A stretch of DNA of 64,000 bases, taken from NCBI GenBank assembly GCA_965261695.1, contig OZ253474.1:3411340-3475339 (forward strand), read 5' to 3'. Made by a program: the position numbers and the translations under genes. The DNA comes from Caldilineaceae bacterium. GTDB taxonomy: Bacteria > Chloroflexota > Anaerolineae > Caldilineales > Caldilineaceae. Of the stretch, positions 1-54,312 are shown piece after piece. The notes under the pieces were generated by a model that did no database searches, was not told the origin of the DNA, and was given only the letters and a program-made list of their open reading frames with translations. The number at the start of each line of letters is the position of its first letter. Positions within the stretch are counted from its first letter, which is position 1.

Positions 1-458
1 TCCCGCCAGACCCGACCGGCGGTGGCGGCGACCCCCTCCCGCCAGACCCGACCGGCGGCAGCGGTAAAACGCTCACCCTGGCCCAGACCCTTGCCGAGTA
101 CGAGCTAATCAAAGCTTTGGCCCCCAATCGCATCATCTTCCACGCCGCCACTCCAATCCAGCTCTGTAAAGTGGACGATGGACTCCAGATCTACTTCGTT
201 AGCAGAAAAGGAAAGACGCGTCTCGGCCCGTGGGTCCCCTCCTTCGCCGAACTGGCCGCAAAATATCCCGATGGCGACGAGGCTTCGATCTACTACGGCT
301 TCAACCCGCTCAACGGCAAACGCGTCAAAATCGACTATCTGCCAGCCGCAAAACGAATTCGCGTAGACACCTTCTACGCCGACAAAGACAAAGATAAAAA
401 CAAACAATACATCTTCCACTTCGGCCCCGAACACGACATCACCTACGACGCCTGGTAA
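1..458 (+). CDS. hypothetical protein, 3' part of a CDS that begins upstream of the window
   Basis: Frame 3 is open from nt 3 to the TAA at 456-458. The listed ORF 117..458 is only its TTG-initiated tail. Pro/Gly repeats PPDPTGGGG / PPDPTGGSG sit at the window edge, followed by a globular C-terminal part. No family recognised. Confidence 0.5.
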   Translation, partial: PPDPTGGGGDPLPPDPTGGSGKTLTLAQTLAEYELIKALAPNRIIFHAATPIQLCKVDDGLQIYFVSRKGKTRLGPWVPSFAELAAKYPDGDEASIYYGFNPLNGKRVKIDYLPAAKRIRVDTFYADKDKDKNKQYIFHFGPEHDITYDAW

Positions 459-765
459 CGCAACAGAGGGGCAAGCCAAGAGCGCCCACCCCTGCCCAGC
501 TCTTGGCAACCCCCTCCTCCCTAGCCGCGCTACCGGCCGGTTGTGATTCTCCAGGCGTTCTGAAAAGTGCGGGACGCTCTCCGGCTTCGGCTGGGGGGCG
601 TTCTTTCTTGTCACAACGACCTTGGCCTTCCCGTGTCAGGGCCGTCTCCTTACCCGACAGGAAGGGGGCGTGCGCCGGCCCGGTTGTTCTGAACTGTGAT
701 TTGCGGGATTAGGGGATTTTCAGAGTCAGGTCATCCACGAAGGACACGAAGGGGCACGAAGAGGA

Positions 766-978
766 ATGTCTGCGCAGACTGACGGGGATAGGCTTGCTCG
801 ATTGGAGGGGGCATACCAACATCTGGCAACCAAGGCGGACATTGAACGGTTGCAAGTCGATCTGATAAAGTGGTCTGTCGGCATAGGACTTGGAATAGCA
901 ACCATTGCATCGGCTGCATCCCGAATTTTTGGGCCTTTGCAATCTGCCCTTTCACCCGACGCAAAAAGGATCCGCTGA
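766..978 (+). CDS. small hypothetical protein (N-terminal coiled coil, hydrophobic C-terminal segment)
   Basis: ATG-initiated 70-aa ORF. LARLEGAYQHLATKADIERLQVDL is helix-like and is followed by a TM-like WSVGIGLGIATIASAASRIFG. RBS support is only modest (GGGG 751-754). No family recognised. Confidence 0.4.
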   Translation: MSAQTDGDRLARLEGAYQHLATKADIERLQVDLIKWSVGIGLGIATIASAASRIFGPLQSALSPDAKRIR

Positions 979-1070
979 ACAGGCTTCAACCGATCGCCTG
1001 CAATCCTGTAAATCCTGATTCAGACAACATCCACCCAAAAATTTGGGACAGACCCCGCAGGGACGACGCA

Positions 1071-1099
1071 TTGTCAAAAAATCCGGATGCTGCTATTCT
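1071..1099 (+). promoter_or_regulatory. sigma70-like promoter candidate upstream of the first Uma2 copy
   Basis: TTGTCA (1071-1076), 17-nt spacer, TATTCT (1094-1099), about 70 nt upstream of ATG 1167. Hexamer match only. Confidence 0.3.
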
Positions 1100-1166
1100 T
1101 GAGCCACGCATGGGCCTGGGACCGGGCTGGCCGCGCTTGTTCTCTGGACAGAGTCAGGAGAGCGAA

Positions 1167-2033
1167 ATGACCGAGAGCGCCGTATCGGCAACTGAATCAT
1201 CTGTGCCCCACCGGAAAACTGCGGTGACCTCCGGCGCGGTGAGGCGGGACAACGACCAGGGCGTTGCGGCCGTTCATCCGCCGCTGACGCCCGCGGATAG
1301 ACGCGTCATCGAGCAACTTGTCACCGAGGACGACACCCCCGTGGATAACCGGTTTTCCGAAAAGCAGCGCCGCCTGCTGACGACGCCCTTGTACAACTCC
1401 TGGGCCGGACCTGGCGGCGGACGCCCGTTCATGGTCGGAGCCGATGTCGGCGTCTTTCTCCACCCCCGCGAAGCGCCGCTCGTCCCCGATGTTTTCCTCA
1501 GCCTCGATGTCATAGAGATAGAGGAGCCGTGGGGCAAGGAGGGACGCAGCTACTTTATCTGGGAGTACAAAAAGGCGCCCGATGTGGTGATCGAGGTGGT
1601 GTCAAACGAGAAAGGCGCTGAGGTTGCGTCCAAGTTCGCTGGCTACGCCCGCTTCGGCGTCCCCTGTTACGTGATATTCGACCCCTTGACGCTGGTGCAG
1701 AAGGAACCGGTACGGGCCTATCAACGTACGCCGGCCGGGGATTACAGGCCGTGCGCCTACGACATACTACCGGGAATTGGGCTGGGTCTGCGGCTGTGGC
1801 GGGGCGGATTCGACAATCTGCATGCAACCTGGTTGCGCTGGCTCGACGCGTCCGGCGAACTCGTTCTCACAGGTGAGGAACGCGCCGACCGGGAAAGAAG
1901 CAGAGCCGACCGGGAAAGAGACAGAGCCGACCAGGAAAGAGACAGAGCCGACCAGGAAAGAAGCAGAGCCGACAGGCTCGCAGCCCGGCTGCGCGCGCAC
2001 GGAATCTCGCCGGACAACGGCATGACGGATTAG
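1167..2033 (+). CDS. Uma2-family (DUF820) PD-(D/E)XK putative endonuclease, tandem copy 1
   Basis: ATG 1167 is preceded by AGGAG (1156-1160). The track start at 870 is an in-frame extension not shared by copies 2-5. Uma2-type motifs: PDVFLSLD, APDVVIEVVSNEKG, KFAGYARFGVPCYVIFDP. Four 21-bp (7-aa RAD[RQ]ER[SD]) repeats at 1887-1970. Confidence 0.85.
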   Translation: MTESAVSATESSVPHRKTAVTSGAVRRDNDQGVAAVHPPLTPADRRVIEQLVTEDDTPVDNRFSEKQRRLLTTPLYNSWAGPGGGRPFMVGADVGVFLHPREAPLVPDVFLSLDVIEIEEPWGKEGRSYFIWEYKKAPDVVIEVVSNEKGAEVASKFAGYARFGVPCYVIFDPLTLVQKEPVRAYQRTPAGDYRPCAYDILPGIGLGLRLWRGGFDNLHATWLRWLDASGELVLTGEERADRERSRADRERDRADQERDRADQERSRADRLAARLRAHGISPDNGMTD

Positions 2034-2100
2034 TTTTGCGTTTATTGGTTCTCAGTTGGGCGACTGGACAGGTGGAGACCTGGCAGGGGAGGCGTGCGAA

Positions 2101-2967
2101 ATGACCGAGAGCGCCGTATCGGCAACTGAATCATCTGTGCCCCACCGGAAAACTGCGGTGACCTCCGGCGCGGTGAGGCGGGACAACGACCAGGGCGTTG
2201 CGGCCGTTCATCCGCCGCTGACGCCCGCGGATAGACGCGTCATCGAGCAACTTGTCACCGAGGACGACACCCCCGTGGATAACCGGTTTTCCGAAAAGCA
2301 GCGCCGCCTGCTGACGACGCCCTTGTACAACTCCTGGGCCGGACCTGGCGGCGGACGTCCGTTCATGGTCGGAGCCGATGTCGGCGTCTTTCTGCACCCC
2401 CGCGAAGCGCCGCTCGTCCCCGATGTTTTCCTCAGCCTCGATGTCATAGAGATACAGGAGCCGTGGGGCAAGGAGGGACGCAGCTACTTTATCTGGGAGT
2501 ACAAAAAGGCGCCCGATGTGGTGATCGAGGTGGTGTCAAACGAGAAAGGCGGTGAGGTTGCGTCCAAGTTCGCTGGCTACGCCCGCTTCGGCGTCCCCTG
2601 TTACGTGATATTCGACCCCTTGACGCTGGTGCAGAAGGAACCGGTACGGGCCTATCAACGTACGCCGGCCGGGGATTACAGGCCGTGCGCCTACGACATA
2701 CTACCGGGAATTGGGCTGGGTCTGCGGCTGTGGCGGGGCGGATTCGACAATCTGCATGCAACCTGGTTGCGCTGGCTCGACGCGTCCGGCGAACTCGTTC
2801 TCACAGGTGAGGAACGCGCCGACCGGGAAAGAAGCAGAGCCGACCGGGAAAGAGACAGAGCCGACCAGGAAAGAGACAGAGCCGACCAGGAAAGAAGCAG
2901 AGCCGACAGGCTCGCAGCCCGGCTGCGCGCGCACGGAATCCCGCCGGACAACGGCATGATGGATTAG
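2101..2967 (+). CDS. Uma2-family putative endonuclease, tandem copy 2
   Basis: ATG 2101 is preceded by GGGGAGG in the conserved 67-nt spacer. Near-identical to copy 1. Four 21-bp repeats at 2821-2904. Confidence 0.85.
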   Translation: MTESAVSATESSVPHRKTAVTSGAVRRDNDQGVAAVHPPLTPADRRVIEQLVTEDDTPVDNRFSEKQRRLLTTPLYNSWAGPGGGRPFMVGADVGVFLHPREAPLVPDVFLSLDVIEIQEPWGKEGRSYFIWEYKKAPDVVIEVVSNEKGGEVASKFAGYARFGVPCYVIFDPLTLVQKEPVRAYQRTPAGDYRPCAYDILPGIGLGLRLWRGGFDNLHATWLRWLDASGELVLTGEERADRERSRADRERDRADQERDRADQERSRADRLAARLRAHGIPPDNGMMD

Positions 2968-3034
2968 TTTTGCGTTTTTTGGTTCTTAGTTGGGCGACTG
3001 GACAGGTGGAGACCTGGCAGGGGAGGGGTGCGAA

Positions 3035-3880
3035 ATGACCGAGAGCGCCGTATCGGCAACTGAATCATCTGTGCCCCACCGGAAAACTGCGGTGACCTCC
3101 GGCGCGGTGAGGCGGGACAACGACCAGGGCGTTGCGGCCGTTCATCCGCCGCTGACGCCCGCGGATAGACGCGTCATCGAGCAACTTGTCACCGAGGACG
3201 ACACCCCCGTGGATAACCGGTTTTCCGAAAAGCAGCGCCGCCTGCTGACGACGCCCTTGTACAACTCCTGGGCCGGACCTGGCGGCGGACGTCCGTTTAT
3301 GGTCGGAGCCGATGTCGGCGTCTTTCTGCACCCCCGCGAAGCGCCGCTCGTCCCCGATGTTTTCCTCAGCCTCGATGTCATAGAGATAGAGGAGCCGTGG
3401 GGCAAGGAGGGACGCAGCTACTTTATCTGGGAGTACAAAAAGGCGCCCGATGTGGTGATCGAGGTGGTGTCAAACGAGAAAGGCGCTGAGGTTGCGTCCA
3501 AGTTCGCTGGCTACGCCCGCTTCGGCGTCCCCTGTTACGTGATATTCGACCCCTTGACGCTGGTGCAGAAGGAACCGGTACGGGCCTATCAACGTACGCC
3601 GGCCGGGGATTACAGGCCGTGCGCCTACGACATACTACCGGGAATTGGGCTGGGTCTGCGGCTGTGGCGGGGCGGATTCGACAATCTGCATGCAACCTGG
3701 TTGCGCTGGCTCGACGCGTCCGGCGAACTCGTTCTCACAGGTGAGGAACGCGCCGACCGGGAAAGAAGCAGAGCCGACCGGGAAAGAGACAGAGCCGACC
3801 AGGCCGAAAGCAGAGCCGACAGGCTCGCAGCCCGGCTGCGCGCGCACGGAATCCCGCCGGACAACGGCATGACGGATTAG
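3035..3880 (+). CDS. Uma2-family putative endonuclease, tandem copy 3
   Basis: ATG 3035 with the same spacer and RBS. Three 21-bp repeats at 3755-3817. Confidence 0.85.
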   Translation: MTESAVSATESSVPHRKTAVTSGAVRRDNDQGVAAVHPPLTPADRRVIEQLVTEDDTPVDNRFSEKQRRLLTTPLYNSWAGPGGGRPFMVGADVGVFLHPREAPLVPDVFLSLDVIEIEEPWGKEGRSYFIWEYKKAPDVVIEVVSNEKGAEVASKFAGYARFGVPCYVIFDPLTLVQKEPVRAYQRTPAGDYRPCAYDILPGIGLGLRLWRGGFDNLHATWLRWLDASGELVLTGEERADRERSRADRERDRADQAESRADRLAARLRAHGIPPDNGMTD

Positions 3881-3947
3881 TTTTGCGTTTTTTGGTTCTT
3901 AGTTGGGCGACTGGACAGGTGGAGACCTGGCAGGGGAGGGGTGCGAA

Positions 3948-4856
3948 ATGACCGAGAGCGCCGTATCGGCAACTGAATCATCTGTGCCCCACCGGAAAAC
4001 TGCGGTGACCTCCGGCGCGGTGAGGCGGGACAACGACCAGGGCGTTGCGGCCGTTCATCCGCCGCTGACGCCCGCGGATAGACGCGTCATCGAGCAACTT
4101 GTCACCGAGGACGACACCCCCGTGGATAACCGGTTTTCCGAAAAGCAGCGCCGCCTGCTGACGACGCCCTTGTACAACTCCTGGGCCGGACCTGGCGGCG
4201 GACGTCCGTTCATGGTCGGAGCCGATGTCGGCGTCTTTCTGCACCCCCGCGAAGCGCCGCTCGTCCCCGATGTTTTCCTCAGCCTCGATGTCATAGAGAT
4301 ACAGGAGCCGTGGGGCAAGGAGGGACGCAGCTACTTTATCTGGGAGTACAAAAAGGCGCCCGATGTGGTGATCGAGGTGGTGTCAAACGAGAAAGGCGGT
4401 GAGGTTGCGTCCAAGTTCGCTGGCTACGCCCGCTTCGGCGTCCCCTGTTACGTGATATTCGACCCCTTGACGCTGCTGCAGAAGGAACCGGTACGGGCCT
4501 ATCAACGTACGCCGGCCGGGGATTACAGGCCGTGCGCCTACGACATACTACCGGGAATTGGGCTGGGTCTGCGGCTGTGGCGGGGCGGATTCGACAATCT
4601 GCATGCAACCTGGTTGCGCTGGCTCGACGCGTCCGGCGAACTCGTTCTCACAGGTGAGGAACGCGCCGACCGGGAAAGAAGCAGAGCCGACCAGGAAAGA
4701 AGCAGAGCCGACCAGGCCGAAAGCAGAGCCGACCAGGAAAGAAGCAAAGCCGACCAGGAAAGAAGCAGAGCCGACCAGGAAAGAAGCAGAGCCGACAGGC
4801 TCGCAGCCCGGCTGCGCGCGCACGGAATCCCGCCGGACAACGGCATGACGGATTAG
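3948..4856 (+). CDS. Uma2-family putative endonuclease, tandem copy 4
   Basis: ATG 3948 with the same spacer and RBS. Six 21-bp repeats at 4668-4793. Confidence 0.85.
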   Translation: MTESAVSATESSVPHRKTAVTSGAVRRDNDQGVAAVHPPLTPADRRVIEQLVTEDDTPVDNRFSEKQRRLLTTPLYNSWAGPGGGRPFMVGADVGVFLHPREAPLVPDVFLSLDVIEIQEPWGKEGRSYFIWEYKKAPDVVIEVVSNEKGGEVASKFAGYARFGVPCYVIFDPLTLLQKEPVRAYQRTPAGDYRPCAYDILPGIGLGLRLWRGGFDNLHATWLRWLDASGELVLTGEERADRERSRADQERSRADQAESRADQERSKADQERSRADQERSRADRLAARLRAHGIPPDNGMTD

Positions 4857-4923
4857 TTTTGCGTTTATTGGTTCTTAGTTGGGCGACTGGACAGGTGGAG
4901 ACCTGGCAGGGGAGGCGTGCGAA

Positions 4924-5811
4924 ATGACCGAGAGCGCCGTATCGGCAACTGAATCATCTGTGCCCCACCGGAAAACTGCGGTGACCTCCGGCGCGGTGAG
5001 GCGGGACAACGACCAGGGCGTTGCGGCCGTTCATCCGCCGCTGACGCCCGCGGATAGACGCGTCATCGAGCAACTTGTCACCGAGGACGACACCCCCGTG
5101 GATAACCGGTTTTCCGAAAAGCAGCGCCGCCTGCTGACGACGCCCTTGTACAACTCCTGGGCCGGACCTGGCGGCGGACGTCCGTTCATGGTCGGAGCCG
5201 ATGTCGGCGTCTTTCTGCACCCCCGCGAAGCGCCGCTCGTCCCCGATGTTTTCCTCAGCCTCGATGTCATAGAGATACAGGAGCCGTGGGGCAAGGAGGG
5301 ACGCAGCTACTTTATCTGGGAGTACAAAAAGGCGCCCGATGTGGTGATCGAGGTGGTGTCAAACGAGAAAGGCGCTGAGGTTGCGTCCAAGTTCGCTGGC
5401 TACGCCCGCTTCGGCGTCCCCTGTTACGTGATATTCGACCCCTTGACGCTGGTGCAGAAGGAACCGGTACGGGCCTATCAACGTACGCCGGCCGGGGATT
5501 ACAGGCCGTGCGCCTACGACATACTACCGGGAATTGGGCTGGGTCTGCGGCTGTGGCGGGGCGGATTCGACAATCTGCATGCAACCTGGTTGCGCTGGCT
5601 CGACGCGTCCGGCGAACTCGTTCTCACAGGTGAGGAACGCGCCGACCGGGAAAGAAGCAGAGCCGACCGGGAAAGAGACAGAGCCGACCAGGAAAGAAGC
5701 AGAGCCGACCAGGAAAGAAGCAGAGCCGACCAGGAAAGAAGCAGAGCCGACAGGCTCGCAGCCCGGCTGCGCGCGCACGGAATCCCGCCGGACAACGGCA
5801 TGACGGATTAG
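4924..5811 (+). CDS. Uma2-family putative endonuclease, tandem copy 5
   Basis: ATG 4924 with the same spacer and RBS. Five 21-bp repeats at 5644-5748. Confidence 0.85.
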   Translation: MTESAVSATESSVPHRKTAVTSGAVRRDNDQGVAAVHPPLTPADRRVIEQLVTEDDTPVDNRFSEKQRRLLTTPLYNSWAGPGGGRPFMVGADVGVFLHPREAPLVPDVFLSLDVIEIQEPWGKEGRSYFIWEYKKAPDVVIEVVSNEKGAEVASKFAGYARFGVPCYVIFDPLTLVQKEPVRAYQRTPAGDYRPCAYDILPGIGLGLRLWRGGFDNLHATWLRWLDASGELVLTGEERADRERSRADRERDRADQERSRADQERSRADQERSRADRLAARLRAHGIPPDNGMTD

Positions 5812-5972
5812 TTTTGCGTTTTTTGGTTCTTAGTTGGGCGACTGGACAGGCTCGGTTTACCAGCATGGATCGGTTTGGCTGTTCAATTGACTACATTGTT
5901 GCGCTAAACGCACAAGAGAATTAGAGCGGAGAAAGTACTGCCCGCCATAGCCTATGCCTTGACGGAGAAAGT

Positions 5973-7010
5973 GTGAGCAGAAATATGCAGGCGCTTGAAG
6001 AATTGCAAAGCCGCGCGCAAGAGGAGTTGGCCGCAACCGACACCGTCGAAGCCACCGAGTCCTGGTTCCGGGACTATCTGGGGCGCAATGGGGCGCTCAC
6101 CGATTTTCTGCGGGGATTGAGCGAGCTTTCGCGCGCCGAGCGCCCGGCGGCCGGCCGCGCCGGCAATGAACTGAAAAATCTACTGGAAGCCGCCCTGCAC
6201 ACCCGCCAGGAGGCGATCCGCCAGCAGGAGATGGTGCAGACGCTGGCCGCCGAGGGCGTGGACGTAACCCTGCCGGGGCGCAAGCCGAACCTGGGCAAGA
6301 TCCATCCGAGCAATCAGACGCTGCGCGAGATTGCGCAGATATTCGGCCAGATGGGCTTCCAGGTTTACGACGCGCCGGAGGTCGAAACCGACGAAAACAA
6401 CTTTGGCCTGCTCAACATCCCGCAGGGACATCCCGCCCGCGATATGTGGGATACATTCTACACAACGACGCCCGGCGTGATCCTGCGCACCCACACCAGC
6501 CCCGGCCAGATCCACGCGATGCGGGAGTACTGCCCCGAGCCGATTCGGGTGATTCTGCCGGGCAAATGTTACCGCCATGAGGACGTCAGCGCCCGCTACG
6601 ACATGATGTTCCACCAGGTGGAGGGGCTGGTCGTCGGCCACAACGTAACCTTCAGCGACCTGAAGGGCACGCTCGTGAACTTCGCCAACCAGATGTTCGG
6701 CCAGGGGCGCAAGCTGCGCTTCCGCAAGAGCTATTTCCCCTTCACCGAGCCTAGTGTCGAGGTGGACGCCGGCTGCGTTCTGTGCGCAGCCGAGGGCTGC
6801 CGCATCTGCAAGCAGACCGGCTGGTTGGAGATTTTAGGCGCGGGGATGGTGCATCCGATCGTGCTGCAAAACGGCGGCTACGACCCGTCTGTCTTCAGCG
6901 GCTTCGCCTTCGGCATGGGGCCGGAGCGGATCGCAATGCTCAAGTACGGCATTGACGACATCCGCTACTTTTTCACCAATGACGTGCGCTTCCTCGAACG
7001 GGTCGGATGA
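5973..7010 (+). CDS. pheS: phenylalanine--tRNA ligase alpha subunit
   Basis: GTG 5973 lies 5 nt after GGAG (alternative ATG at 5985). Class II aaRS motifs are present: HPARDMWDTFY, FRKSYFPFTEPSVEVD, GMVHP, FGMGPERIAMLKYGIDDIR. Confidence 0.95.
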   Translation: MSRNMQALEELQSRAQEELAATDTVEATESWFRDYLGRNGALTDFLRGLSELSRAERPAAGRAGNELKNLLEAALHTRQEAIRQQEMVQTLAAEGVDVTLPGRKPNLGKIHPSNQTLREIAQIFGQMGFQVYDAPEVETDENNFGLLNIPQGHPARDMWDTFYTTTPGVILRTHTSPGQIHAMREYCPEPIRVILPGKCYRHEDVSARYDMMFHQVEGLVVGHNVTFSDLKGTLVNFANQMFGQGRKLRFRKSYFPFTEPSVEVDAGCVLCAAEGCRICKQTGWLEILGAGMVHPIVLQNGGYDPSVFSGFAFGMGPERIAMLKYGIDDIRYFFTNDVRFLERVG

Positions 7011-7072
7011 GTCCGCGGCCAGCAACCCCATTTCTAACTGATCACTGATTGCCGGCCGCCGCGGTTTCAACT

Positions 7073-7858
7073 TCACTCATCCAGCGCCCGGCGCATGCTC
7101 TCACCTTCCTTCAGCCAAAACTGATAGAGGGTGTCGATTTCAGTGCCGATGCAGAAGTGGCGCGCGCCCATGTCCAGATAGTGCTTGGCCTCGTCTGCGC
7201 TGCTGATTTCGATGCGGGGAATGACGCCCGCCGCCAGGCAGGATTCGATCACGCGCTTCTCACCGGCCTGCACGCGCGCATCCTTACTCTTAGGGGAAAC
7301 ACCGATGCTCATCGAGAAATCGGACGGCCCCCATTGGAGCATTTCTATCCCGTCCACGGCCAGGATCTCGTCGAGTTCATCCAGGGCCGGTTTCTTCTCC
7401 AGCATCAGCGCGACGACAATCTTGCTGAGCGCCTGCACATAGGCCTCATCGCCGCCATACCCCATATAGGAGAACCGGCGGGTGGCCACGCCGTATGTGC
7501 CGCCTATTTGAGGCGAGTCGGCGCGCACGTAGCTGACACAGTCGCGCGCGCCTTCAGCCGAGCGCACGTCGGAAAAGAGGACACTATTGAAACCGGAGCC
7601 CACGGCCCGCTGGGCGACATACTCGTTGTTGGCCCAGTCGATCTTGATCATCGCGCCCAGATTGTGCAGTTCGGCGGCGCGGCAAATGTTGTCCAGATCG
7701 TGCAGCGTATAGGTTCCGTACTCAGCCACAAATTCGACATAGTCGTAAAGCCCTGTGTGGCCCAGAACTTCCACGATGTTCGGCCAGACGGTATGGATGT
7801 GCGTTGCCAGCGTTGGTTTGCCCTGATCGAGCAGGTTGCGAATGATATTCGCGCGCAT
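7073..7858 (-). CDS. HpcH/HpaI-family aldolase (2-keto-3-deoxy-acid aldolase type)
   Basis: Start set at the internal ATG 7858 (MRANIIRNLLDQGKP...), giving 261 aa, the usual family length. The upstream part of ORF 7073..8089 is Arg-rich and atypical. TIM-barrel aldolase pattern with ...YVEFVAEYG..., ...MIKID..., ...EMLQWGPSDFS... Confidence 0.75.
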   Translation of the reverse strand: MRANIIRNLLDQGKPTLATHIHTVWPNIVEVLGHTGLYDYVEFVAEYGTYTLHDLDNICRAAELHNLGAMIKIDWANNEYVAQRAVGSGFNSVLFSDVRSAEGARDCVSYVRADSPQIGGTYGVATRRFSYMGYGGDEAYVQALSKIVVALMLEKKPALDELDEILAVDGIEMLQWGPSDFSMSIGVSPKSKDARVQAGEKRVIESCLAAGVIPRIEISSADEAKHYLDMGARHFCIGTEIDTLYQFWLKEGESMRRALDE

Positions 7859-8101
7859 TGTAGAGTTCTCCGGGTGGGTTGGCGTTCTGACGGTTCGCCG
7901 GTACAGAGGCCAGCCTGAGCGAGAAGTGAGTTGCGAGGAGAGAGAGTTCGCTCTCCTTGGCTGTATCCAGTATAGCACAGCAGATAGGTGAAGCACATTC
8001 GCGGGCAAAAGCCCTGGTCTGTCGACGCGGGCGGCTCGCCTGCGCTTACGCAGTGCGAAATACAATTTGCAGCACGAGCGGGCCTTCATCGTGAACGCAC
8101 A

Positions 8102-10315
8102 TCAGTCGCTCGGCTCCAGCAGGTCCTCCGTCTGTCCGCTGTGAATCAGCAGAACCGTCCCAACCGCGCTGATCCAGTCGTTGAGCTGGTTGCCGTATCT
8201 CTCACGTTCTTCGGGCTCTGGCCGGTTCATGCCCAGCAACGTCAGGTCGGTCTGTCTGCTCCAGGTCTTCACCGTCTCCGGGAACGGCTCATCTTGCGGT
8301 GGGACGACAATGACCGGCTCGGCGGCAACCCGCACCCTGTCCAGGAGGGCGCGCAGATGGGCCTCGGTCTGTTCGCGTCCTTCCCCGCGCGGCAGGATTT
8401 GCAGCAGGCGAATCGATGCCCCGTCCCAGGTTGGATCTTGCGAGATGATATGCGCCAAAAGAAGCATCAGGTCGCCATTGCGGCTGTGCCCCCGCCACCA
8501 GACGTCGATGATCTTGCGGTTGCCGAAACCGCGCGCCTCGTCGTGATGCAAGAACAGGACCGATTTGTCCAACTCGTACAACGTCGACAACAGGCGCAAT
8601 GACAGGGCGCGCCCGCCGACCGTATCGCTCCAGCCCATCAGAACCGAGTTCGGCTCAAGACCGCCGACGCCGTGAGATTGGCACACGGTCACGGCGCCGG
8701 CGTAAAAGCTGTCCACGATGTCAGCCTCGGCAAAGGCCGACATGTTCTGCTCAAGGATGAATGTGCGGATCTGTCGCCGCGCCACGCTGCGCAGCCGTTT
8801 TTGCGCCAACTGATCGATATCCCCGACCAGCAGTTGATAGAAGGAGACGATGCCATAGCCGCGGCTGAGCCAATGGGCAACCTCCACCAACGGCGCGCGG
8901 TTGTGGGGCTGGCCGGTGAAGACCAGGATGTTGGGCCGCCAGTTCTTGGGGTGATAAGCTAAACGCTCCAGGTTTAGGAGCGATTGCCGCGCCAGGGAGA
9001 ACCAGATGCCGTTGCGCACATCGCCCCAGGTGCGAATGGTGGAACGGCGTTCCAGATAGAAGTAGATGCCATAGCTGATCAGGATAGCGATTAAGGTGGC
9101 GAGCGGGTTGATCACGAACATCGCGCCGTAGCAGCCCGCCGCGCCCAGGAGTGAGAGGCTGGGATGGATTCTTGCGCGCGGCCGGAAGCTGGGGTTGCCC
9201 ACCAGTTTTTCGATGCCCGCCACCAGGTTGGTCATGCCGTAGGTGTTGAGGAAAAACATGGTGATGATCGGCGCAACCACGTTCAGATCGCCGGCCCAGA
9301 TGACCGCGAGGGCGATGCCTGCAGTGACGAGGACGCCGAGGCGCGGCTCGGTTCGGCTGCCCAAGCGGGCGCCGATCACGCGCGGCACGATTCCATCCTG
9401 CGCCATCGCCTGCAGCGTGCGCGGCGCGGCCACGATGCTGCCCAAGGCGGAGGAGAGCGTCGCCGCCCAGACGCCGAGCAGGATCAGGGGTGGAAGCAGC
9501 GCGATGTCCTGCATGATCAGCGTGTTGCTCTTCAGTTCATGCGACGTGCCATGCAAGGAGAGCCAGATGACCGCGGCAAAGTAGACAATAGCCGTGAACA
9601 GAACCGAAAGGATCGTGCCTTTGTGAATGCTCCTGCCCGGATCTTTCAGATCGCCGGACATACTGGCGCCTACTGCGATGCCGGTGACCGCAGGGAAGAA
9701 GACAGCGAAAACGCTCCAGAAATTCATGCCTTCGCTATAAGCGGAAGTCAAGGTCGGCGCCTGGATAGCGCCCCAACCACCGGCGAAGAAGGAGAGCAGA
9801 GCCGCTATCAACGCGACCAGAATGAAATACTGTATCTTGATGGCGAAGTCCGCGCCGATGAAGGCGATGGCGCCGAAAAGAAGCGCGATCAAAGTGGCGA
9901 GCAAGCGGGGATCGATCCGGCTGAAGTAGGCGATTCCCTCCAGAGCCTCGGTGAAACCGATGATGTAGAAGGCCACCGAGATCGCCTGCGAGAGATAGAG
10001 CGGGACGCCGATGGCGCCGCCGATTTCCCGGCCGAGCGTGCGTGAGATGAGGTAATATTTTCCGCCGGCGCGAACATTCATCGAGGTGGCGATGGCCGAC
10101 AGGGACAGGCCGGTCAGGAAGCTGATGGAGTTGGCGATGACGACGATGAGCAGCGCTCCGAGCAGCCCGGTCTGGCCGACGACCCAGCCCGTGCGCAAAA
10201 AGAGAATCAGGCCCAGAATCGTGAGTACATTCGGGGTGAACACACCCTCAAACGTGCCGAATCGAGCCGACGCACTCCTTGATCGGGGCGGAACTGTCTG
10301 TGCTGATGAAGTCAT
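8102..10315 (-). CDS. APC-superfamily cation-chloride cotransporter-like (SLC12-type) permease with large cytoplasmic C-terminal domain
   Basis: 737 aa. N-terminal FGTFEGVFTPNVLTILGLILFLRTGWVVG is followed by about 12 hydrophobic helices and then a soluble tail of about 250 aa. The ATG overlaps the stop of the upstream gene (ATGA at 10312-10315). Confidence 0.8.
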   Translation of the reverse strand: MTSSAQTVPPRSRSASARFGTFEGVFTPNVLTILGLILFLRTGWVVGQTGLLGALLIVVIANSISFLTGLSLSAIATSMNVRAGGKYYLISRTLGREIGGAIGVPLYLSQAISVAFYIIGFTEALEGIAYFSRIDPRLLATLIALLFGAIAFIGADFAIKIQYFILVALIAALLSFFAGGWGAIQAPTLTSAYSEGMNFWSVFAVFFPAVTGIAVGASMSGDLKDPGRSIHKGTILSVLFTAIVYFAAVIWLSLHGTSHELKSNTLIMQDIALLPPLILLGVWAATLSSALGSIVAAPRTLQAMAQDGIVPRVIGARLGSRTEPRLGVLVTAGIALAVIWAGDLNVVAPIITMFFLNTYGMTNLVAGIEKLVGNPSFRPRARIHPSLSLLGAAGCYGAMFVINPLATLIAILISYGIYFYLERRSTIRTWGDVRNGIWFSLARQSLLNLERLAYHPKNWRPNILVFTGQPHNRAPLVEVAHWLSRGYGIVSFYQLLVGDIDQLAQKRLRSVARRQIRTFILEQNMSAFAEADIVDSFYAGAVTVCQSHGVGGLEPNSVLMGWSDTVGGRALSLRLLSTLYELDKSVLFLHHDEARGFGNRKIIDVWWRGHSRNGDLMLLLAHIISQDPTWDGASIRLLQILPRGEGREQTEAHLRALLDRVRVAAEPVIVVPPQDEPFPETVKTWSRQTDLTLLGMNRPEPEERERYGNQLNDWISAVGTVLLIHSGQTEDLLEPSD

Positions 10316-11598
10316 AAGCGATGCGTGACCTCCTGCATAGCGGAACGCCAGCTGGCCGGAATCCGTTCGCCAAGTTCGATCCGTGCTGCCCCGTTAAACT
10401 GCGCCAGTTCCAGCAACGACTCTGCCGCCGCCGCCCGCGACTGTGCGTCGCTCGGCGCGTCCTGTTCCGGATGCAAGGCGTGGATGTGGTAGATGCCTGC
10501 CTTGCGATCGATTTGGGAATCCATGCGTCCGATGAAGCGGTCGCCGTGCAGCAGCGGCAACACGTAGTAGCCGTACTGCCGCTTGGCTTTGGGTACGTAG
10601 ATTTCGATGCGGTAGTGGAAATCGAAGAACTGCTGCGTGCGTTCCCGGTCACAGATGAGATTGTCGAAGGGGGAGAGAAAGACGGTGCGCGGCTCCCATC
10701 CAGCGGCCCGGATCGATTCCAGCAGCGGCAGAGCGTCGCGATGAAGATACCATTGGCCCGCCCAAGGTCCCTGCTCGCCGACGATCTGCGCCGGTAAAAC
10801 GACCTTCTCCGCCATCAGTTCGGTCAGCCTTTCCCCCAGGTTCGGGTACATATTGCGGATAAAATGGCTGTTGATCTGCTTCTGGTTCGCCACGCCCAGC
10901 GCCTTCAACGAGCGTTGGCAGGCAAGGCGCACAACCTCCTCTTCGTCCGGCAACTCTTCGTCCGGCAACTCCTCGTCGGCCCACGCCGGCAGCCAGGCGT
11001 CGCGCAGATGCCACAGCCTCTGGTTTCCGCGGCGGCCCACTGAAATGACAACGCCAAGTCCGTTAAGAAAATCGAGCATGCGAGAGGCGGGTTTGCCGCT
11101 GAACCAACTGGAGGCGGTCCAGCGAGCCGCCTCCAGGTCGTCGAACGCTGTGGCAGGCAAAGGTCCGTCTGCCTGAAGACGCGCGCTAATCTGTTGCTGC
11201 AGGGCCGCGTTGGCCTCCATCCACTCGCGTGCCAGTTGCACCCACGCGGCTTTGCTGTCAAAAGAGCGCCCAATCCAGCGACGAAAGAGGGGATAGTCTT
11301 CCGTCAGGACAAAGGAGGCACGGTGCGCCTCGCCTTCGATAATGTGGCGCTCCTCCTGGAGCTGATCGAGCAGGCCTGGATCGAAGGCGCCGACGCGGCT
11401 CCATAGAACGAGCAATTGTGTGCGCTCCACTGCCCGAATCGGATCGATCTGCAGGCAGTTGATCTGCCGCAAGAGTGAAAAGATGCCCTCTTTGCTTGCT
11501 TGCGGGCGCGGCGCGGTCAAACGCTGGGCGGCGATGGCCAAGCGGCGGGCTTCGGTGGGCGTGAGGATGATCGATTGCATCTTGTCGTCTAACTGCAC
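10312..11598 (-). CDS. YcaQ-like winged-helix (HTH_42 superfamily) DNA glycosylase
   Basis: 428 aa. The N-terminal LLRQINCLQIDPI contains the Q-hydrophobic-D catalytic motif reported for the YcaQ-like clade. Overall length and layout match DUF1006/YcaQ proteins. Confidence 0.7.
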   Translation of the reverse strand: MQLDDKMQSIILTPTEARRLAIAAQRLTAPRPQASKEGIFSLLRQINCLQIDPIRAVERTQLLVLWSRVGAFDPGLLDQLQEERHIIEGEAHRASFVLTEDYPLFRRWIGRSFDSKAAWVQLAREWMEANAALQQQISARLQADGPLPATAFDDLEAARWTASSWFSGKPASRMLDFLNGLGVVISVGRRGNQRLWHLRDAWLPAWADEELPDEELPDEEEVVRLACQRSLKALGVANQKQINSHFIRNMYPNLGERLTELMAEKVVLPAQIVGEQGPWAGQWYLHRDALPLLESIRAAGWEPRTVFLSPFDNLICDRERTQQFFDFHYRIEIYVPKAKRQYGYYVLPLLHGDRFIGRMDSQIDRKAGIYHIHALHPEQDAPSDAQSRAAAAESLLELAQFNGAARIELGERIPASWRSAMQEVTHRL

Positions 11599-11625
11599 TC
11601 CGTGCGGTTGAGGAACCGACAGAAT

Positions 11626-13170
11626 TTAGCGCGCATAAGCGAGAAATTGTACTTCCTGGTGCAGCTCTTGCGCGAGATTCAAGAGGCTGAGACTGCGCAA
11701 AACGCCGGCCGCAATCGGCCTCTTGTCATTCCAGAAGATGAAGGAACGATAGAACTGCTGCGCCGGTTCGGAATTCAGCAGATCGGCCACAAAATGGGCT
11801 TCTTCGTGGGCGTGGCAAGGGATGAAGTAGCAGGTATCGTCGAAAACGACCGGTTTGTTCTGATGCGGCCCGACGACGACGAAGCGCAACTGCTTGTACA
11901 TGCCGGAGATGGCGACCTTCCAGCGGGCGAATGCGTACGCCCCGACGCCGAAGATGGCGAAGCGGGGGCGATTGCGGTAGACCGAACTGCGCCTGCTGTC
12001 CAGAATGTCCCTGTGCCGGTGCAGGTAGCGCCAGGCATTGGGCGCCTTCGTGCGGATCGGCGCCGTGTTTTCTCCGACCGCTTTCTGTGTGACCAGCATC
12101 CATCGCCGCGGCGGGGTGATGGGTGCGCGGGCCAGTCTGTCCGCCGCGCCTCCGTTGTGGTCAGACTGTCGAATCGGCGACCGGACCAAGTCGGAGCTCT
12201 TGTACATCGGGTAGAGATAGTCCGGCTCCAACTCCCAGTCGTCCCCCGAACGGTTGACGTACCGGCCATCGACGGTTCTCAGTTCCATTGCGCTGGCGCA
12301 ATCGTGCTTGATGCCGGAGCGCCATTGATACTGGGGCGGTTCGCGTTCACCGCCGCGCAGGTTTAGCCAGCGCGCGTAGGCGTCCAGGTCAGCGACCAGG
12401 CGCCCATCCCGCAGGCCGATGACGTTTGCCTGGCGCTGGGCACGCAGGTCGTCGTAGACCGCGCACTGCGGCTGCGCCTGGCGCCGGGTCGTGTCGAAGA
12501 TGAGCAGACAGGCGTCGACGGAGGCGTCGAAGGCGCGCTTGGCATTGATGCGCCACAGCTGGCAGCGGGCGGGCGGCTGCGGTTGACTCCAGGCGTATTG
12601 GAGAACCTTGCGCGCAACCTTCGTTTTGCACAGCATGGCGAGGGCGGCGGGCCTTTCATTGAGCCAGGCGATCATTTGCAGCAACATCGATTCGGAGATA
12701 TCGAAATTGCTGGCTCCGGTCAGCGCGTCGATCCCGGGCCGGCCGTGTAGATTCGCCTTGGGCGGCAGGTTCGTACTGTGCAAGGCCGACAGTCCGGTGT
12801 TTGTCACCCACGGTGGGTTGCCGAGGATGAGCAGCGGATCCGGCATCATGCGGAGAAACGGGCGCCAATCGCATGAAAAGAAGTCGCCCTGCCGTATGTC
12901 AGCGCTAATGCGGCCGGTCCCGGCGCCCAGCCGATTGCGGGCGCGCTCGACATGGCCCCCGTTGATGTCAATGCCGAACAGATGGGTAACTGAGTCGAAG
13001 GTCTTCGTGCCGCCGCGCTGGAGATTGCCGGTGCCACAGGTGGGATCGAGCAGCGATTTGGGCATGAGGCCGACATCTCGCAGCGTAAGACTTACTTGCT
13101 GCGCCAGCCATTCGGGGATCTGGAAATCACCGAATTCGGTCTTGTTTCTGCCGCCTGGCTCGCCCATCAC
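11626..13170 (-). CDS. N6-adenine-specific DNA methyltransferase (gamma class) with TaqI-like C-terminal target-recognition domain
   Basis: Motif I LLDPTCGTGN and motif IV ILGNPPWV occur in gamma order. The C-terminal half (...AWRYLHRHRDILDSRRS...FAIFGVG...DDTCYFIP...LLNSEP...) resembles the TaqI_C/Eco57I-type specificity domain. GTG 13170 or ATG 13167. Confidence 0.75.
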   Translation of the reverse strand: MMGEPGGRNKTEFGDFQIPEWLAQQVSLTLRDVGLMPKSLLDPTCGTGNLQRGGTKTFDSVTHLFGIDINGGHVERARNRLGAGTGRISADIRQGDFFSCDWRPFLRMMPDPLLILGNPPWVTNTGLSALHSTNLPPKANLHGRPGIDALTGASNFDISESMLLQMIAWLNERPAALAMLCKTKVARKVLQYAWSQPQPPARCQLWRINAKRAFDASVDACLLIFDTTRRQAQPQCAVYDDLRAQRQANVIGLRDGRLVADLDAYARWLNLRGGEREPPQYQWRSGIKHDCASAMELRTVDGRYVNRSGDDWELEPDYLYPMYKSSDLVRSPIRQSDHNGGAADRLARAPITPPRRWMLVTQKAVGENTAPIRTKAPNAWRYLHRHRDILDSRRSSVYRNRPRFAIFGVGAYAFARWKVAISGMYKQLRFVVVGPHQNKPVVFDDTCYFIPCHAHEEAHFVADLLNSEPAQQFYRSFIFWNDKRPIAAGVLRSLSLLNLAQELHQEVQFLAYAR

Positions 13171-13212
13171 GAGAGTTCCCCGCAGATGAAGAGAGAGGGA
13201 GACATTCGCGCC

Positions 13213-15589: not shown

Positions 15590-16782
15590 GGGTGCATCCC
15601 AAATTTTTGGGGAACGTGCCCCTGCGATCGCGGGCCTCTCGCCCGCAGCCGGTTTCGGCTTCCGCGCCTGTTGAAGAACTGCTCCAATGGGTGACAGATG
15701 CAGGTTGCCTGTCGCCAGAATCGAACCGCAACTCGCCTGATTCTCGTCAACGAAGACGCCGCCTGAGCCGCTGCCATCAACTATCTCCAGCATACTGACT
15801 GCCTGAACCACAGTTCAGACAACTGCTGCGAGTCCTGCCCTTCAGAGCAACTCAGAAACGCTCCCCCATTCTGAGATACACCCTGGAATCTCCAGCAACT
15901 GCAAACGCCCCGCTTTTGTAGTACACTTGTGCGCAAGACGAACGAGCGCAGCCGCGGCCCTGCCGCAACTGCATACCGATTTCAAATGAATGCCATGCCA
16001 TTTTGCCCATCCTGCCCCCTGCGCGCGGGAGCCACGCGCAGCAAACTGCTGCCCTCCCTGCCCAGCCGCTGCTGCAACAACCCGTTGCCCGCCATTCCCG
16101 AAAAAACTATTTTGGGACGAAGAATGACGAGAAATGACGAGAAATGACGAAAAATGACGAAAGAACACGCCCAAACGTGCCCGAACGTATCCGAACACGA
16201 AAAAAAAAAATTGGCGCGACTAAACGCGACTAAACGCGACCAAACGCGACTAAACGCGACTTGGCGCGTTCGCAAACGCTCGCAAACGCTCGCAAACGCT
16301 CGTAACTGCTTGCAAACGCTCGTAAACGCTCGTAACTGCCTACACTGGCACACCTGACCTGCGCGCCCCGCACGTCGCCTGCAAGCGGCCCATAACCCCG
16401 GGCGCAGCCGAAATTCCGCCCCCATTCTTGGATTCATCCGCCCGAGGCGCCGATAGCGGAACTTCAACAGTGTCTCAACGAACGCCACTCTGTGCGTTTT
16501 GTGCGTTTTCAGTACTCAGAGTGATTGCGATGCTGTAAATCGTGGTGCGCGGGCGGATAAAACGCAGCCCAACTGCTCAGCGCCGACGCGCGCTTCCCTT
16601 GCATGGGTGCATCCCAGTTTTTCGTTAAGATGAAAGGGCGTAGACGCGGAGAAGGGGTTGAGAAGACCAAAGGGGATCCCCTGGCGATGCCTGCACTCCG
16701 CACGACTCCGCTCAGTCAAACCTGGCCTCAACTGCTTCAACCGCTTGGCTTTACTCGACGCACAATAATCTGGGATGCACCC
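15590..16782. mobile_element. non-autonomous TIR transposable element, copy 1 (1,193 bp, no conserved ORF)
   Basis: Perfect 12-bp TIRs GGGTGCATCCCA (15590-15601) and TGGGATGCACCC (16771-16782). 8-bp direct target duplication GTCAATTC (15582-15589 and 16783-16790). A second copy elsewhere in the window has a different TSD. Confidence 0.9.
16116..16340. repeat. about 22 consecutive 10-bp-phased short direct repeats (four iteron types) around an A11 run, inside element copy 1
   Basis: 5x GACGA(A/G)(A/G)AAT. 4x C(A/G)(C/T)G(C/T/A)-CC(A/G)AA-type units. A11 at 16200-16210. 5x CGCGAC(T/C)AAA. 7x CGCT-CG(C/T)AA(A/C)-type units. All lie in one 10-bp register. Confidence 0.9.
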
Positions 16783-21235: not shown

Positions 21236-21279
21236 TCAACCTCGATATACCGGTGCAAAGTGGTTGGCTGCTCTTGTCA

Positions 21280-21657
21280 CCACTGACCACTGACCACTGA
21301 CCACCGACCACCGACCACTGACCACCGACCACCGACCACCGACCACTGACCACTGACCACCGACCACCGACCACTGACCACTGACCACAGGCCACTGACC
21401 ACTGACCACTGACCACTGACCACTGACCACTGACCACTGACCACTGACCACTGACCACTGACCACTGACCACTGACCACCGACCACCGACCACCGACCAC
21501 CGACCACCGACCACCGACCACCGACCACAGGCCACTGACCACTGACCACCGACCACCGACCACCGACCACCGACCACCGACCACCGACCACTGACCACTG
21601 ACCACTGACCACTGACCACTGACCACTGACCACCGACCACTGACCACCGACCACTGC
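21280..21657. repeat. heptanucleotide tandem array, 54 units (30 CCACTGA, 22 CCACCGA, 2 CCACAGG)
   Basis: Counted unit by unit from 21280. Unit order (T=CCACTGA, C=CCACCGA, X=CCACAGG): TTTCCTCCCTTCCTTXTTTTTTTTTTTTCCCCCCCXTTCCCCCCTTTTTTCTCT. The array ends 3 nt before the AAAAGGAG RBS region of ilvE. Confidence 0.97.
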
Positions 21658-53094: not shown

Positions 53095-54312
53095 GGGTGC
53101 ATCCCAAATTTTTGGGGAACGTGCCCCTGCGATCGCGGACCTCTCGCCCGCAGCCGGTTTCGGCTTGCGCGCCTGTTGAAGAACTGCTCCAATGGGTGAC
53201 AGATGCAGGTTGCCTGTCGCCAGAATCGAACCGCAGCTCGCCTGATTCTCGTCAACGAAGACGCCGCCTGAGCCGCTGCCGTCAACTGTCTCCAGCATAC
53301 TGACTGCCTGAACCATAGTTCAGACAACTGCTGCGAGTCCTGCCCTTCAAAGCAACTTAGAAACGCTCCCTCATTCCGAGATGCCCCTGGAATTCCCAGC
53401 AACTGCAAACGCCCCGCTTTTGTAGTACACTTGTGCGCAAGACGAACGAGCGCAGCCGCGGCCATGCCGCAACTGCATACCGATTTCAAATGAATACCAT
53501 GCCATTTTGCCCATCCTGCCCCCGGCGCGGGGGAGCCACGCGCAGCAAACTGCTGCCCTCCCTGCCCAGCCGCTGCCGCAACAACCCGTTGCCCGCCATT
53601 CCCGAAAAAGCCATTTTGGGACGAAGAATGACGAAGAATGACGAGAAATGACGAAAAATGACGAAAGAACACGCCCAAACGTGCCCGAACGTGTCCGAAC
53701 AAAAAAAAAATTGGCGCGACTAAACGCGACCAAACGCGACTAAACGCAACTAAACGCGACCTGGCGCGCTCGAACACGCTCGCAAACGCTCGTAACTGCA
53801 GGCAAACGCTCGTAACTGCAGGCAAACGCTCGTAACTGCAGGCAAACGCTCGTAAACGCTCGTAACTGCCTACATGGCACAGCTGACCTGCGCGCCCCGC
53901 ACGTCGCCTGCAAGCGGCCCGTAAGCCCGGGCGCAGCCGAAATTCCGCCCCCCATTCTTGGCTTCACCCGCGCGAGGCGCCGATACTGGAACTTCAACAG
54001 TGTCTCAACGAACGCCAATCTGTGCGTTTTGTGCGTTTTCAGTACTCAGAGTGATTGCGATGCTGTAAATCGTGGTGCGCGGGCGGAAAAAACGCAGCCC
54101 AACTGCTCAGCGCCGACGCGCGCTTCCCTTGCATGGGTGCATCCCAGTTTTTCGTTAAGATGAAAGGGGGTAGACGAGGAGAGGGGAATGAGAAGACCAA
54201 AGGGGATCCCCTGGCGATGCCTGCACTCCGCACGACTCCGCGCAGTCATACCTGGCCTCAACTGCTTCAACCGCTTGGCTTTACTCGACGCACAATAATC
54301 TGGGATGCACCC
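53095..54312. mobile_element. non-autonomous TIR transposable element, copy 2 (1,218 bp)
   Basis: Same 12-bp TIRs (53095-53106 and 54301-54312) and same orientation as copy 1. Its own 8-bp target duplication is AAATGAAC (53087-53094 and 54313-54320). Confidence 0.9.
53620..53870. repeat. 10-bp-phased iteron/A-tract core of element copy 2
   Basis: Same four iteron types as copy 1 around an A10 run (53701-53710). The last array is expanded by 3 copies of the 20-bp unit CAAACGCTCGTAACTGCAGG. A 3-4 nt deletion next to the A-run shifts the register between the two halves. Confidence 0.9.

Follow-up and report, generated by a model that had tools for sequence, protein, structure and literature searches.

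Tandem Uma2-family genes upstream of pheS in a Caldilineaceae genome differ mainly in the number of C-terminal heptads

Uma2 proteins (also catalogued as DUF820 and COG4636) form a large bacterial family of unknown function, for which diverse roles have been proposed: members have been viewed as selfish recombinogenic nucleases (Feder and Bujnicki 2005, PMC551604), as 'solo toxins' forming cassettes of paralogues (Makarova, Wolf and Koonin 2009, PMC2701414), as presumed restriction enzymes (PMC8649781, PMC9716671) and as accessory genes in type III CRISPR loci (PMC11855584). The family can exceed 2% of all genes, as in Gloeobacter (PMC551604), and adjacent members are on record as 114 COG4636-COG4636 neighbour pairs, as cassettes in cyanobacteria and Thermus (PMC551604, PMC2701414), as many tandem pairs and, in the case of Crocosphaera watsonii, as four consecutive, closely related COG4636 genes (PMC551604). 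Tandem arrays of another family with the same fold occur in Thermosynechococcus sp. TA-1, where PD-(D/E)XK genes of the Rpn family are arranged in 11, 3 and 3 copies and the Uma2 family is expanded too (PMC9403480). Repeat number as a determinant of nuclease specificity is known from HsdS, in which the TAEL repeat acts as a ruler: its length (EcoR124I versus EcoR124II) serves as a spacer, and DNA is recognised with a different geometry, N6 versus N7 (PMC3874165). Here we describe a locus in a 64-kb stretch of a Caldilineaceae bacterium genome (contig OZ253474.1, positions 3,411,340 to 3,475,339; the whole stretch of 64,000 nucleotides (nt) is referred to as the window), in which five head-to-tail Uma2 genes stand immediately upstream of pheS. 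A preceding reading of the same DNA, made from the sequence alone, knew of no described fivefold tandem amplification; tandem Uma2 genes as such are not new, the Crocosphaera genes and the tandem pairs having been reported in 2005 (PMC551604). Taking all parts together, we hold it somewhat more probable than improbable that the locus is an operon of five functional Uma2 genes with shuffled cores, which would act as a library of stalk lengths with a role in genetic conflict.

The five genes (W1-W5) are all intact open reading frames (ORFs) on the forward strand: copy 1 at 1167-2033 (288 residues, 4 heptads), copy 2 at 2101-2967 (288 residues, 4 heptads), copy 3 at 3035-3880 (281 residues, 3 heptads), copy 4 at 3948-4856 (302 residues, 6 heptads) and copy 5 at 4924-5811 (295 residues, 5 heptads). 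Their start-to-start spacing is 934, 934, 913 and 976 nt, and repeat finders recover five copies of ~0.93 kb at 99% identity. The copy number, starts and unit lengths given by the sequence-only reading, together with the end of the homology at 5850, were confirmed by ORF and repeat analysis; its array start at 1143 has to be moved to ~1160, the point about 7 nt 5' of the copy 1 ATG at which homology with the other units begins. Consecutive copies are separated by 67-nt spacers on the forward strand (2034-2100, 2968-3034, 3881-3947 and 4857-4923), each carrying GGGGAGG 8 nt ahead of the next ATG (2086-2092 in spacer 1, whose first ~58 nt correspond to the ancestral 3' flank), and a truncated 39-nt spacer at 5812-5850 (+) forms the right-hand end of the repeated unit. 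The claim that every copy is followed by the same spacer is thus right as to length and GGGGAGG and wrong as to strict identity, since the spacers vary at three sites. Copy 1 has its own Shine-Dalgarno sequence, AGGAG at 1156-1160 (+), 6 nt 5' of the ATG as read from the sequence. The conserved right-hand neighbour of the array is pheS (5985-7010, +, 341 residues), which follows copy 5 on the same strand after a gap of 173 nt. The array and its flanks have equal GC (guanine plus cytosine) contents, and a profile built from the homologue alignment detects no further Uma2 member within the 64-kb window.

Differences in copy length are due entirely to the number of 21-nt in-frame repeats, which encode RADxERx heptads and lie on the forward strand at 1884-1973 in copy 1 and at 2818-2907, 3752-3820, 4665-4796 and 5641-5751 in copies 2-5; the repeat finder counts 4.3, 4.3, 3.3, 6.3 and 5.3 units, corresponding to 4, 4, 3, 6 and 5 heptads. 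This C-terminal heptad number, a subfamily-wide and register-keeping trait, is the main difference between the copies and had been missed by the sequence-only reading. Outside the repeat, a column-by-column comparison yields just eight coding differences among the five copies, three of them synonymous (1424, 1430 and 1460) and five protein-changing: E/Q at 1521, A/G at 1618, V/L at 1695 (copy 4 only), S/P at 2007 and T/M at 2026. The handful of codon differences noted earlier was correct for E/Q, A/G and V/L, and omitted the three synonymous sites, S/P and T/M. The E/Q and A/G variants run E/A, Q/G, E/A, Q/G, Q/A in copies 1-5, a mosaic that had been described correctly and ascribed to gene conversion, an explanation now backed by pairs of sites with all four gametes and by the history of W4 (see below).

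Assignment of the genes to the Uma2 family and the PD-(D/E)XK fold, as originally proposed, is supported by profile search and predicted structure. The Pfam Uma2 profile (PF05685), with a curated cut-off of 27 bits, gives matches of 55.8 and 54.2 bits (E ~1e-14 to 5e-15). The residues D108 (in VPD108), E143 (in E143-V-V-S) and K156 are invariant or nearly so among 70 homologues and present in all five copies, and no variable site falls on any of them. This pattern matches the PD-EXX-K variant of the COG4636 active site, in which the aspartate lies on strand 2, the glutamate on strand 3 and the lysine has moved to the following helix (PMC551604). In the AlphaFold2 model (predicted local distance difference test score (pLDDT) 82.5, predicted template modelling score (pTM) 0.76), the N-terminal residues 1-34 are disordered, residues 42-226 make up an alpha/beta core, and a single long helix forms the C-terminus. 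Foldseek relates the model to the PDB entries 9y1l and 6okh (probability 1.0, E ~1e-6, template modelling (TM) score 0.62 normalised to the target), and a sequence search also recovers 9y1l (E 1.7e-4); these two uncharacterised Uma2-like structures are the sole significant PDB matches. The products are putative nucleases.

The C-terminal tail is composed of R-A-D-x-E-R-x heptads followed by RADRLAARLRAHGI, and it ends in an invariant motif, R-A-[DE]-R-L-A-A-x-L-R-A-[HL]-G-[IV], with invariant leucines, referred to here as the clasp. Across strains carrying the window-type locus, the number of heptads per copy ranges from 2 to 6. AlphaFold2 predicts the tail as one continuous helix (pLDDT 94-98) that spans residues 236-277 (42 residues) with four heptads and 236-291 (56 residues) with six, so that each heptad would add ~1 nm. 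The distance from core to clasp, measured from the WxRW motif at the core end to the terminal L-x3-L-R-x2-G motif, equals 3 mod 7 in 114 of 124 homologues, with values of 24, 31, 38 and so on up to 129, and the same holds for 79 of 91 representatives less than 50% identical to each other (range 17-143 residues); by chance, about 1 in 7 would be expected. The next most frequent class is offset by 3 or 4 residues, which is the size of the usual discontinuities in coiled coils. The consensus over 510 heptads is R (86%), A (92%), E/D (84%), Q (64%), E (72%) or A (26%), R (57%) and a variable residue, and the leucines of the clasp continue the register of heptad positions 2 and 5. Even tails that are old and degenerate preserve this register, a sign of structural constraint. 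We interpret the tail as a coiled-coil-like stalk with a hydrophobic clasp at its end; the seam residues, alanine and glutamate, are weak core residues, and a single stable helix would also fit these single-chain predictions. A search with the tail alone, to see whether other proteins carry it as a module, recovered nothing but truncated Uma2 fragments.

By similarity to its relatives, the organism belongs to the Caldilineaceae (Chloroflexota). The contigs and metagenome-assembled genomes (MAGs) of relatives are labelled L001-L005, L081-L085, L087 and L088; further examples of the locus were recovered by exact-protein look-ups, which yielded five long-read metagenome contigs. All five share the gene order of upstream genes, Uma2 genes and pheS, with four Uma2 copies in L001, five each in L081, L082 and L084, and six in L083 (~30x coverage); no strain falls below four copies, at flank divergence of up to 5-9%. 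The flanks align right up to the array in every contig (91-99.6% identity), and copies must therefore have been gained and lost internally, in whole units. Growth by unequal crossing-over, suggested by the sequence-only reading, is borne out by this comparison of the region upstream of pheS, in which 4-6 whole units stand between the same flanks. In the case of L083, the flanks are 99.4-99.6% identical to those of the window, and the heptad numbers are 2, 2, 3, 3, 5, 5 compared with 4, 4, 3, 6, 5. The tails of W3 and W5 are identical to those of L083 copies 3 and 6, respectively, and the W4 tail contains a rare KADQERS unit, part of a tail signature common to W4, L001 copy 4 and L083 copy 5. 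Gene content varies between strains: in L081 and L082 the differences lie downstream of pheS, in L083 and L084 at a greater distance on the upstream side of the array. As a separate observation, copies 1-3 of L081 (5220-8004, a 9x contig) are frameshifted inside the heptad repeat and intact in the nearly identical L082, which reflects either sequencing error in the repeat or real inactivation.

The core sequences record how the array evolves. Within the 711-nt core, 30 copies differ at 39 sites, 21 synonymous and 18 not, and the ratio of nonsynonymous to synonymous polymorphism (pN/pS) is ~0.29; by this measure the cores are under purifying selection. All four gametes are present in 176 of 351 pairs of informative sites, with variants common to copies and strains. 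Divergence at 4-fold degenerate sites within the array is 0.006 in the window and 0.022-0.040 in the other strains (0.034 in L083), set against 0.023 for pheS between the window and L083; the low value in the window thus indicates recent homogenisation, after the split from L083. All five cores of the window are similar to those of L083 copies 3 and 6. The W4 core lies 1 site from W2 and 8 sites from L083 copy 5, despite the tail signature it has in common with the latter, and on this sequence pattern W4 is taken as a footprint of gene conversion on the core with the tail retained. The tails escape this homogenisation: 25 intact copies carry 23 distinct forms, and differences within arrays account for ~84% of the variance in heptad number. 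We have high confidence in an evolutionary mechanism in which whole 0.93-kb units would be gained and lost via unequal homologous exchange, the catalytic cores would be kept nearly identical by gene conversion and purifying selection, and the C-terminal tails would change independently through gain and loss of 21-nt units; the earlier description of a rapidly evolving locus is supported. It was also observed that 4-fold divergence of Uma2 cores is 0.02-0.05 between strains and 0.03-0.05 between distant ones, for which the adjacent pheS reaches up to 0.19. Strains could have exchanged arrays, or the pheS flank could be recombinant in L081 and L082, where the genes downstream of pheS differ too.

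Comparable arrays have arisen in other lineages with different unit boundaries, the junctions of the window-type, L004 and L087 arrays being distinct. L004, another species whose PheS is ~90% identical to that of the window, carries three Uma2 copies upstream of pheS with 0, 1 and 5 heptads, a promoter for each copy and a duplicated unit that takes in the promoter and a small upstream ORF; with cores only 95-97% identical, these copies are old duplicates. A PD-T4-4 defence system is inserted between L004 Uma2 copies 1 and 2 (subunit A, an ATPase, E 5.7e-80); it occupies 11004-13197 on the reverse strand as two genes, and the partner is weakly similar to PDC-M47B. In L087, a third lineage with proteins 73% identical to those of the window, six copies (cores 97-99% identical) are separated by unrelated, structured 120-nt spacers, do not adjoin pheS and have 1-6 heptads of another sequence type. 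The short-read MAG L003 has a single-copy locus that matches the final L087 copy together with its flanks and may represent a collapsed array. Directly downstream of the L087 array, at 11776-12403, lies a 47-nt repeat present 13.4 times (98% matches), whose core CCTCCGCGGACAAAAG is found on the other side of the array as well, close upstream, and does not occur in the window. Relatives at 52-58% identity have single copies or diverged pairs, and a scan of Joint Genome Institute (JGI) metagenomes added relatives at up to 56% identity on short contigs, including diverged adjacent pairs, and no further near-identical arrays. In L088, a 116-residue ORF at 10102-10452, 1.4 kb downstream of a full-length Uma2 gene, encodes a truncated Uma2 C-terminal fragment with a heptad tail and may be the remnant of a former tandem copy.

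The sigma70-like promoter TTGTCA-17 nt-TATTCT with a TG extension (1071-1099, +) is the sole site of its kind on the forward strand between 600 and 6100, as the sequence-only reading had stated in assigning a promoter-like element to copy 1 alone, and the same element precedes the Uma2 copies of L004. The promoter lies outside the repeated unit, since the homology of copy 1 begins only ~7 nt before its ATG. Terminator-like sites on the forward strand are absent from the spacers and from the interval between copy 5 and pheS. The simplest interpretation of these sequence features is a single polycistronic transcript starting from 1071-1099 and perhaps reading into pheS. Folding of the spacers as RNA or DNA is no better than that of shuffled sequence (z 0.02), and neither tRNA scans nor Rfam, applied to 1-8000 in E-value mode and to the entire window in gathering mode, detected RNA genes in or near the array.

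In functional terms, the array would specify a set of products with a common PD-EXX-K core, each carrying a helical stalk of 2-6 heptads that ends in the clasp. In the manner of a coiled coil, the length of this stalk could set the geometry of the core or the choice of partner, and the array could then constitute a small, fast-changing library of stalk lengths employed in genetic conflict, as a defence system or as a toxin. The functional reading we prefer, with low confidence, is that of a conflict-type nuclease in which geometry or the choice of partner depends on the length of the stalk. The evidence for a conflict role is circumstantial and consists of the PD-T4-4 system in L004, a match to PDC-S03, variable gene content and fast turnover; in the sequence-only reading, the possibility of defence or conflict had been put more strongly than this link allows. 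The PDC-S03 match suggests that some Uma2-like proteins have been flagged as single-gene defence candidates, PDC-S03 itself being only a candidate. A stronger version, in which heptad number would be a functional code, the stalk a ruler between core and clasp and the locus a contingency locus maintained by conflict with phages or mobile DNA, is unlikely; under it, each tail length would give a different cutting geometry or a self-specific pairing partner.

Several observations weigh against the preferred reading. The PADLOC match to PDC-S03 is weak and partial: four models match the protein core of the window genes, the best with E 1.3e-5, over residues 104-179. The window genes downstream of the array are housekeeping genes, and the neighbours of the arrays in L001, L085 and L087 include no notable matches in Pfam, PADLOC or NCBIfam. 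No biochemical study of any Uma2 member was found in the literature, and no activity has been demonstrated. The copy number in the window is that of the assembly rather than a count from reads, and several of the comparison contigs have only 3-9x coverage, so that some single-nucleotide polymorphisms (SNPs), as well as the L081 frameshifts, may be errors. Slippage of the 21-nt unit alone yields steps of seven residues and explains the recent ones, and the spread of heptad numbers within arrays is matched by random sampling of the pool (in 0.54 of shuffles), so that there is no positive sign of selection for tail diversity.

These last two points, together with the change of copy and heptad number between almost identical strains, are what would be expected if the array were a neutral, unstable amplification, in which both numbers drift within a recombination-prone repeat and neither is selected. 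This is the least improbable of the rival explanations, marginally ahead of the functional code described above, and it remains unlikely: all copies are intact in the better-covered assemblies, with pN/pS at ~0.29; no strain has collapsed below four copies at flank divergence of up to 5-9%; arrays arose with different junctions in three lineages; and proteins that are less than 50% identical to each other retain the seven-residue register even where their tails are old and degenerate. More doubtful still is a selfish recombinogenic nuclease, in which Uma2 activity would stimulate local recombination and hence its own duplication, as hypothesised in PMC551604. Proliferation of the family within genomes, for which a selfish nature was proposed there, the recurrence of arrays in related lineages and the lower divergence of the cores than of pheS at neutral sites, which could reflect spread between strains, would all be in keeping with it. 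However, the array is fixed in position between the same flanks in all six strains, the unit lacks terminal repeats, integrase and transposase, no other copy is present in the window, and the relatives found on mobile elements amount to no phage match and four weak matches to cyanobacterial plasmids only; ordinary RecA-type exchange between 0.93-kb repeats would suffice.

Simple dosage amplification, which would provide more of one enzyme and make the tail differences irrelevant, seems slightly less probable again. It would account for nearly identical cores, one promoter and a strong ribosome-binding site for each copy, yet it leaves unexplained why a different tail is found in every copy of every array, why tail identities persist across strains while cores are converted, and why L004 keeps old duplicates with 0, 1 and 5 heptads. 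An assembly artefact, by which a single gene was expanded or its copy number misjudged by the assembler, is very unlikely as the source of the array. Near-identical repeats of 0.9 kb are hard to assemble, and the short-read MAGs of relatives (L003 and L085) show one copy; nevertheless, each of the five copies has its own signature of SNPs and heptads, and five independent long-read contigs, one at ~30x, place 4-6 copies at the same position with partly matching signatures. It is this agreement of copy-specific signatures and independent assemblies on a multi-copy locus that makes an artefact so improbable.

Other known mechanisms of tandem organisation or programmed variation were considered and rejected. 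A type II toxin-antitoxin arrangement is contradicted by 67-nt spacers with no room for a partner gene and by the lack of any antitoxin family adjoining the array. A diversity-generating retroelement was dismissed for want of a neighbouring reverse transcriptase and because the tails vary by gain and loss of whole units, not by adenine-specific changes. Phase variation by frameshift is incompatible with a 21-nt unit that keeps the reading frame, frameshifts being confined to the low-coverage L081. Integron-type cassettes were discarded because the spacers are unstructured and the flanks contain no integrase, and a phage or plasmid origin because of the absence of phage matches, the four weak cyanobacterial plasmid matches and a GC content equal to that of the flanks.

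Two genes upstream of the array have counterparts in relatives. The first (117-458, +) is cut by the window start and represents the C-terminal part of a 236-residue protein; L001-L004 contain repeated paralogues of it, at 44-47% identity, upstream of the array, and no match to it was found in Pfam, PADLOC or NCBIfam. The second, a 70-residue ORF at 766-978 (+), seems by eye to have a coiled-coil segment ahead of a hydrophobic one; L001, L004 and L005 have conserved versions of this ORF, the one in L004 is co-duplicated with Uma2 copy 3, and no family match was found for it. Elsewhere in the window, two other types of repeat were observed. An intergenic 7-nt unit (GACCACT/GACCACC) is repeated 54 times in tandem at 21279-21656 and is followed, after ~20 nt, by the ribosome-binding site and start codon (ATG at 21677) of a forward-strand ORF of 307 residues; the repeat resembles the heptamer short tandemly repeated repetitive (STRR) sequences of cyanobacteria. 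Furthermore, one composite of 10-nt tandem repeats is present as two dispersed copies, at 16116-16339 and 53620-53865, which contain GACGAAAAAT 4.7 times, CGCGACTAAA 4.7 times and TCGCAAACGC-like units 6-10 times.

For a family of this size, the locus offers a natural isoform series for experiments, in which the catalytic core is the same, stalk length alone differs and copy number varies between near-identical strains, and the array of a sister species contains a known defence system as an insertion. Short-read MAGs may hide such arrays, every multi-copy version having come from a long-read or chromosome-level assembly. If stalk length does set geometry or partner choice, the locus would be a new case of repeat number tuning a nuclease, comparable to HsdS; if heptad number were a code, it would provide the first functional handle on the large Uma2 family.

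The analogy with HsdS is one of mechanism only, as the families are unrelated and the repeats comprise four and seven residues, respectively; the HsdS helices connect two DNA-binding domains of one subunit, whereas no DNA target is known for Uma2. The Rpn arrays of TA-1 are likewise tandem genes of a nuclease fold, from a different family, and neither in-frame repeat variation nor a strain-level comparison of copy number was reported for them (PMC9403480). The absence of an antitoxin partner at the window array fits the 'solo' status given to the family in PMC2701414. The literature searched contained no description of near-identical copies in an operon, of copy numbers that differ among strains almost identical to each other, of core conversion that spares the tails or of a register-keeping heptad stalk that varies in number between copies. 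The nearest relatives remain the COG4636 cassettes of 2005 and 2009, which consist, like the array, of adjacent genes of the same family with the same PD-EXX-K variant. Unlike those cassettes, the copies of the window array are ~99% identical and form one putative operon with uniform 67-nt spacers, they number 4-6 among strains whose flanks are up to 99.5% identical, and they combine cores shuffled by gene conversion with a graded series of heptads.

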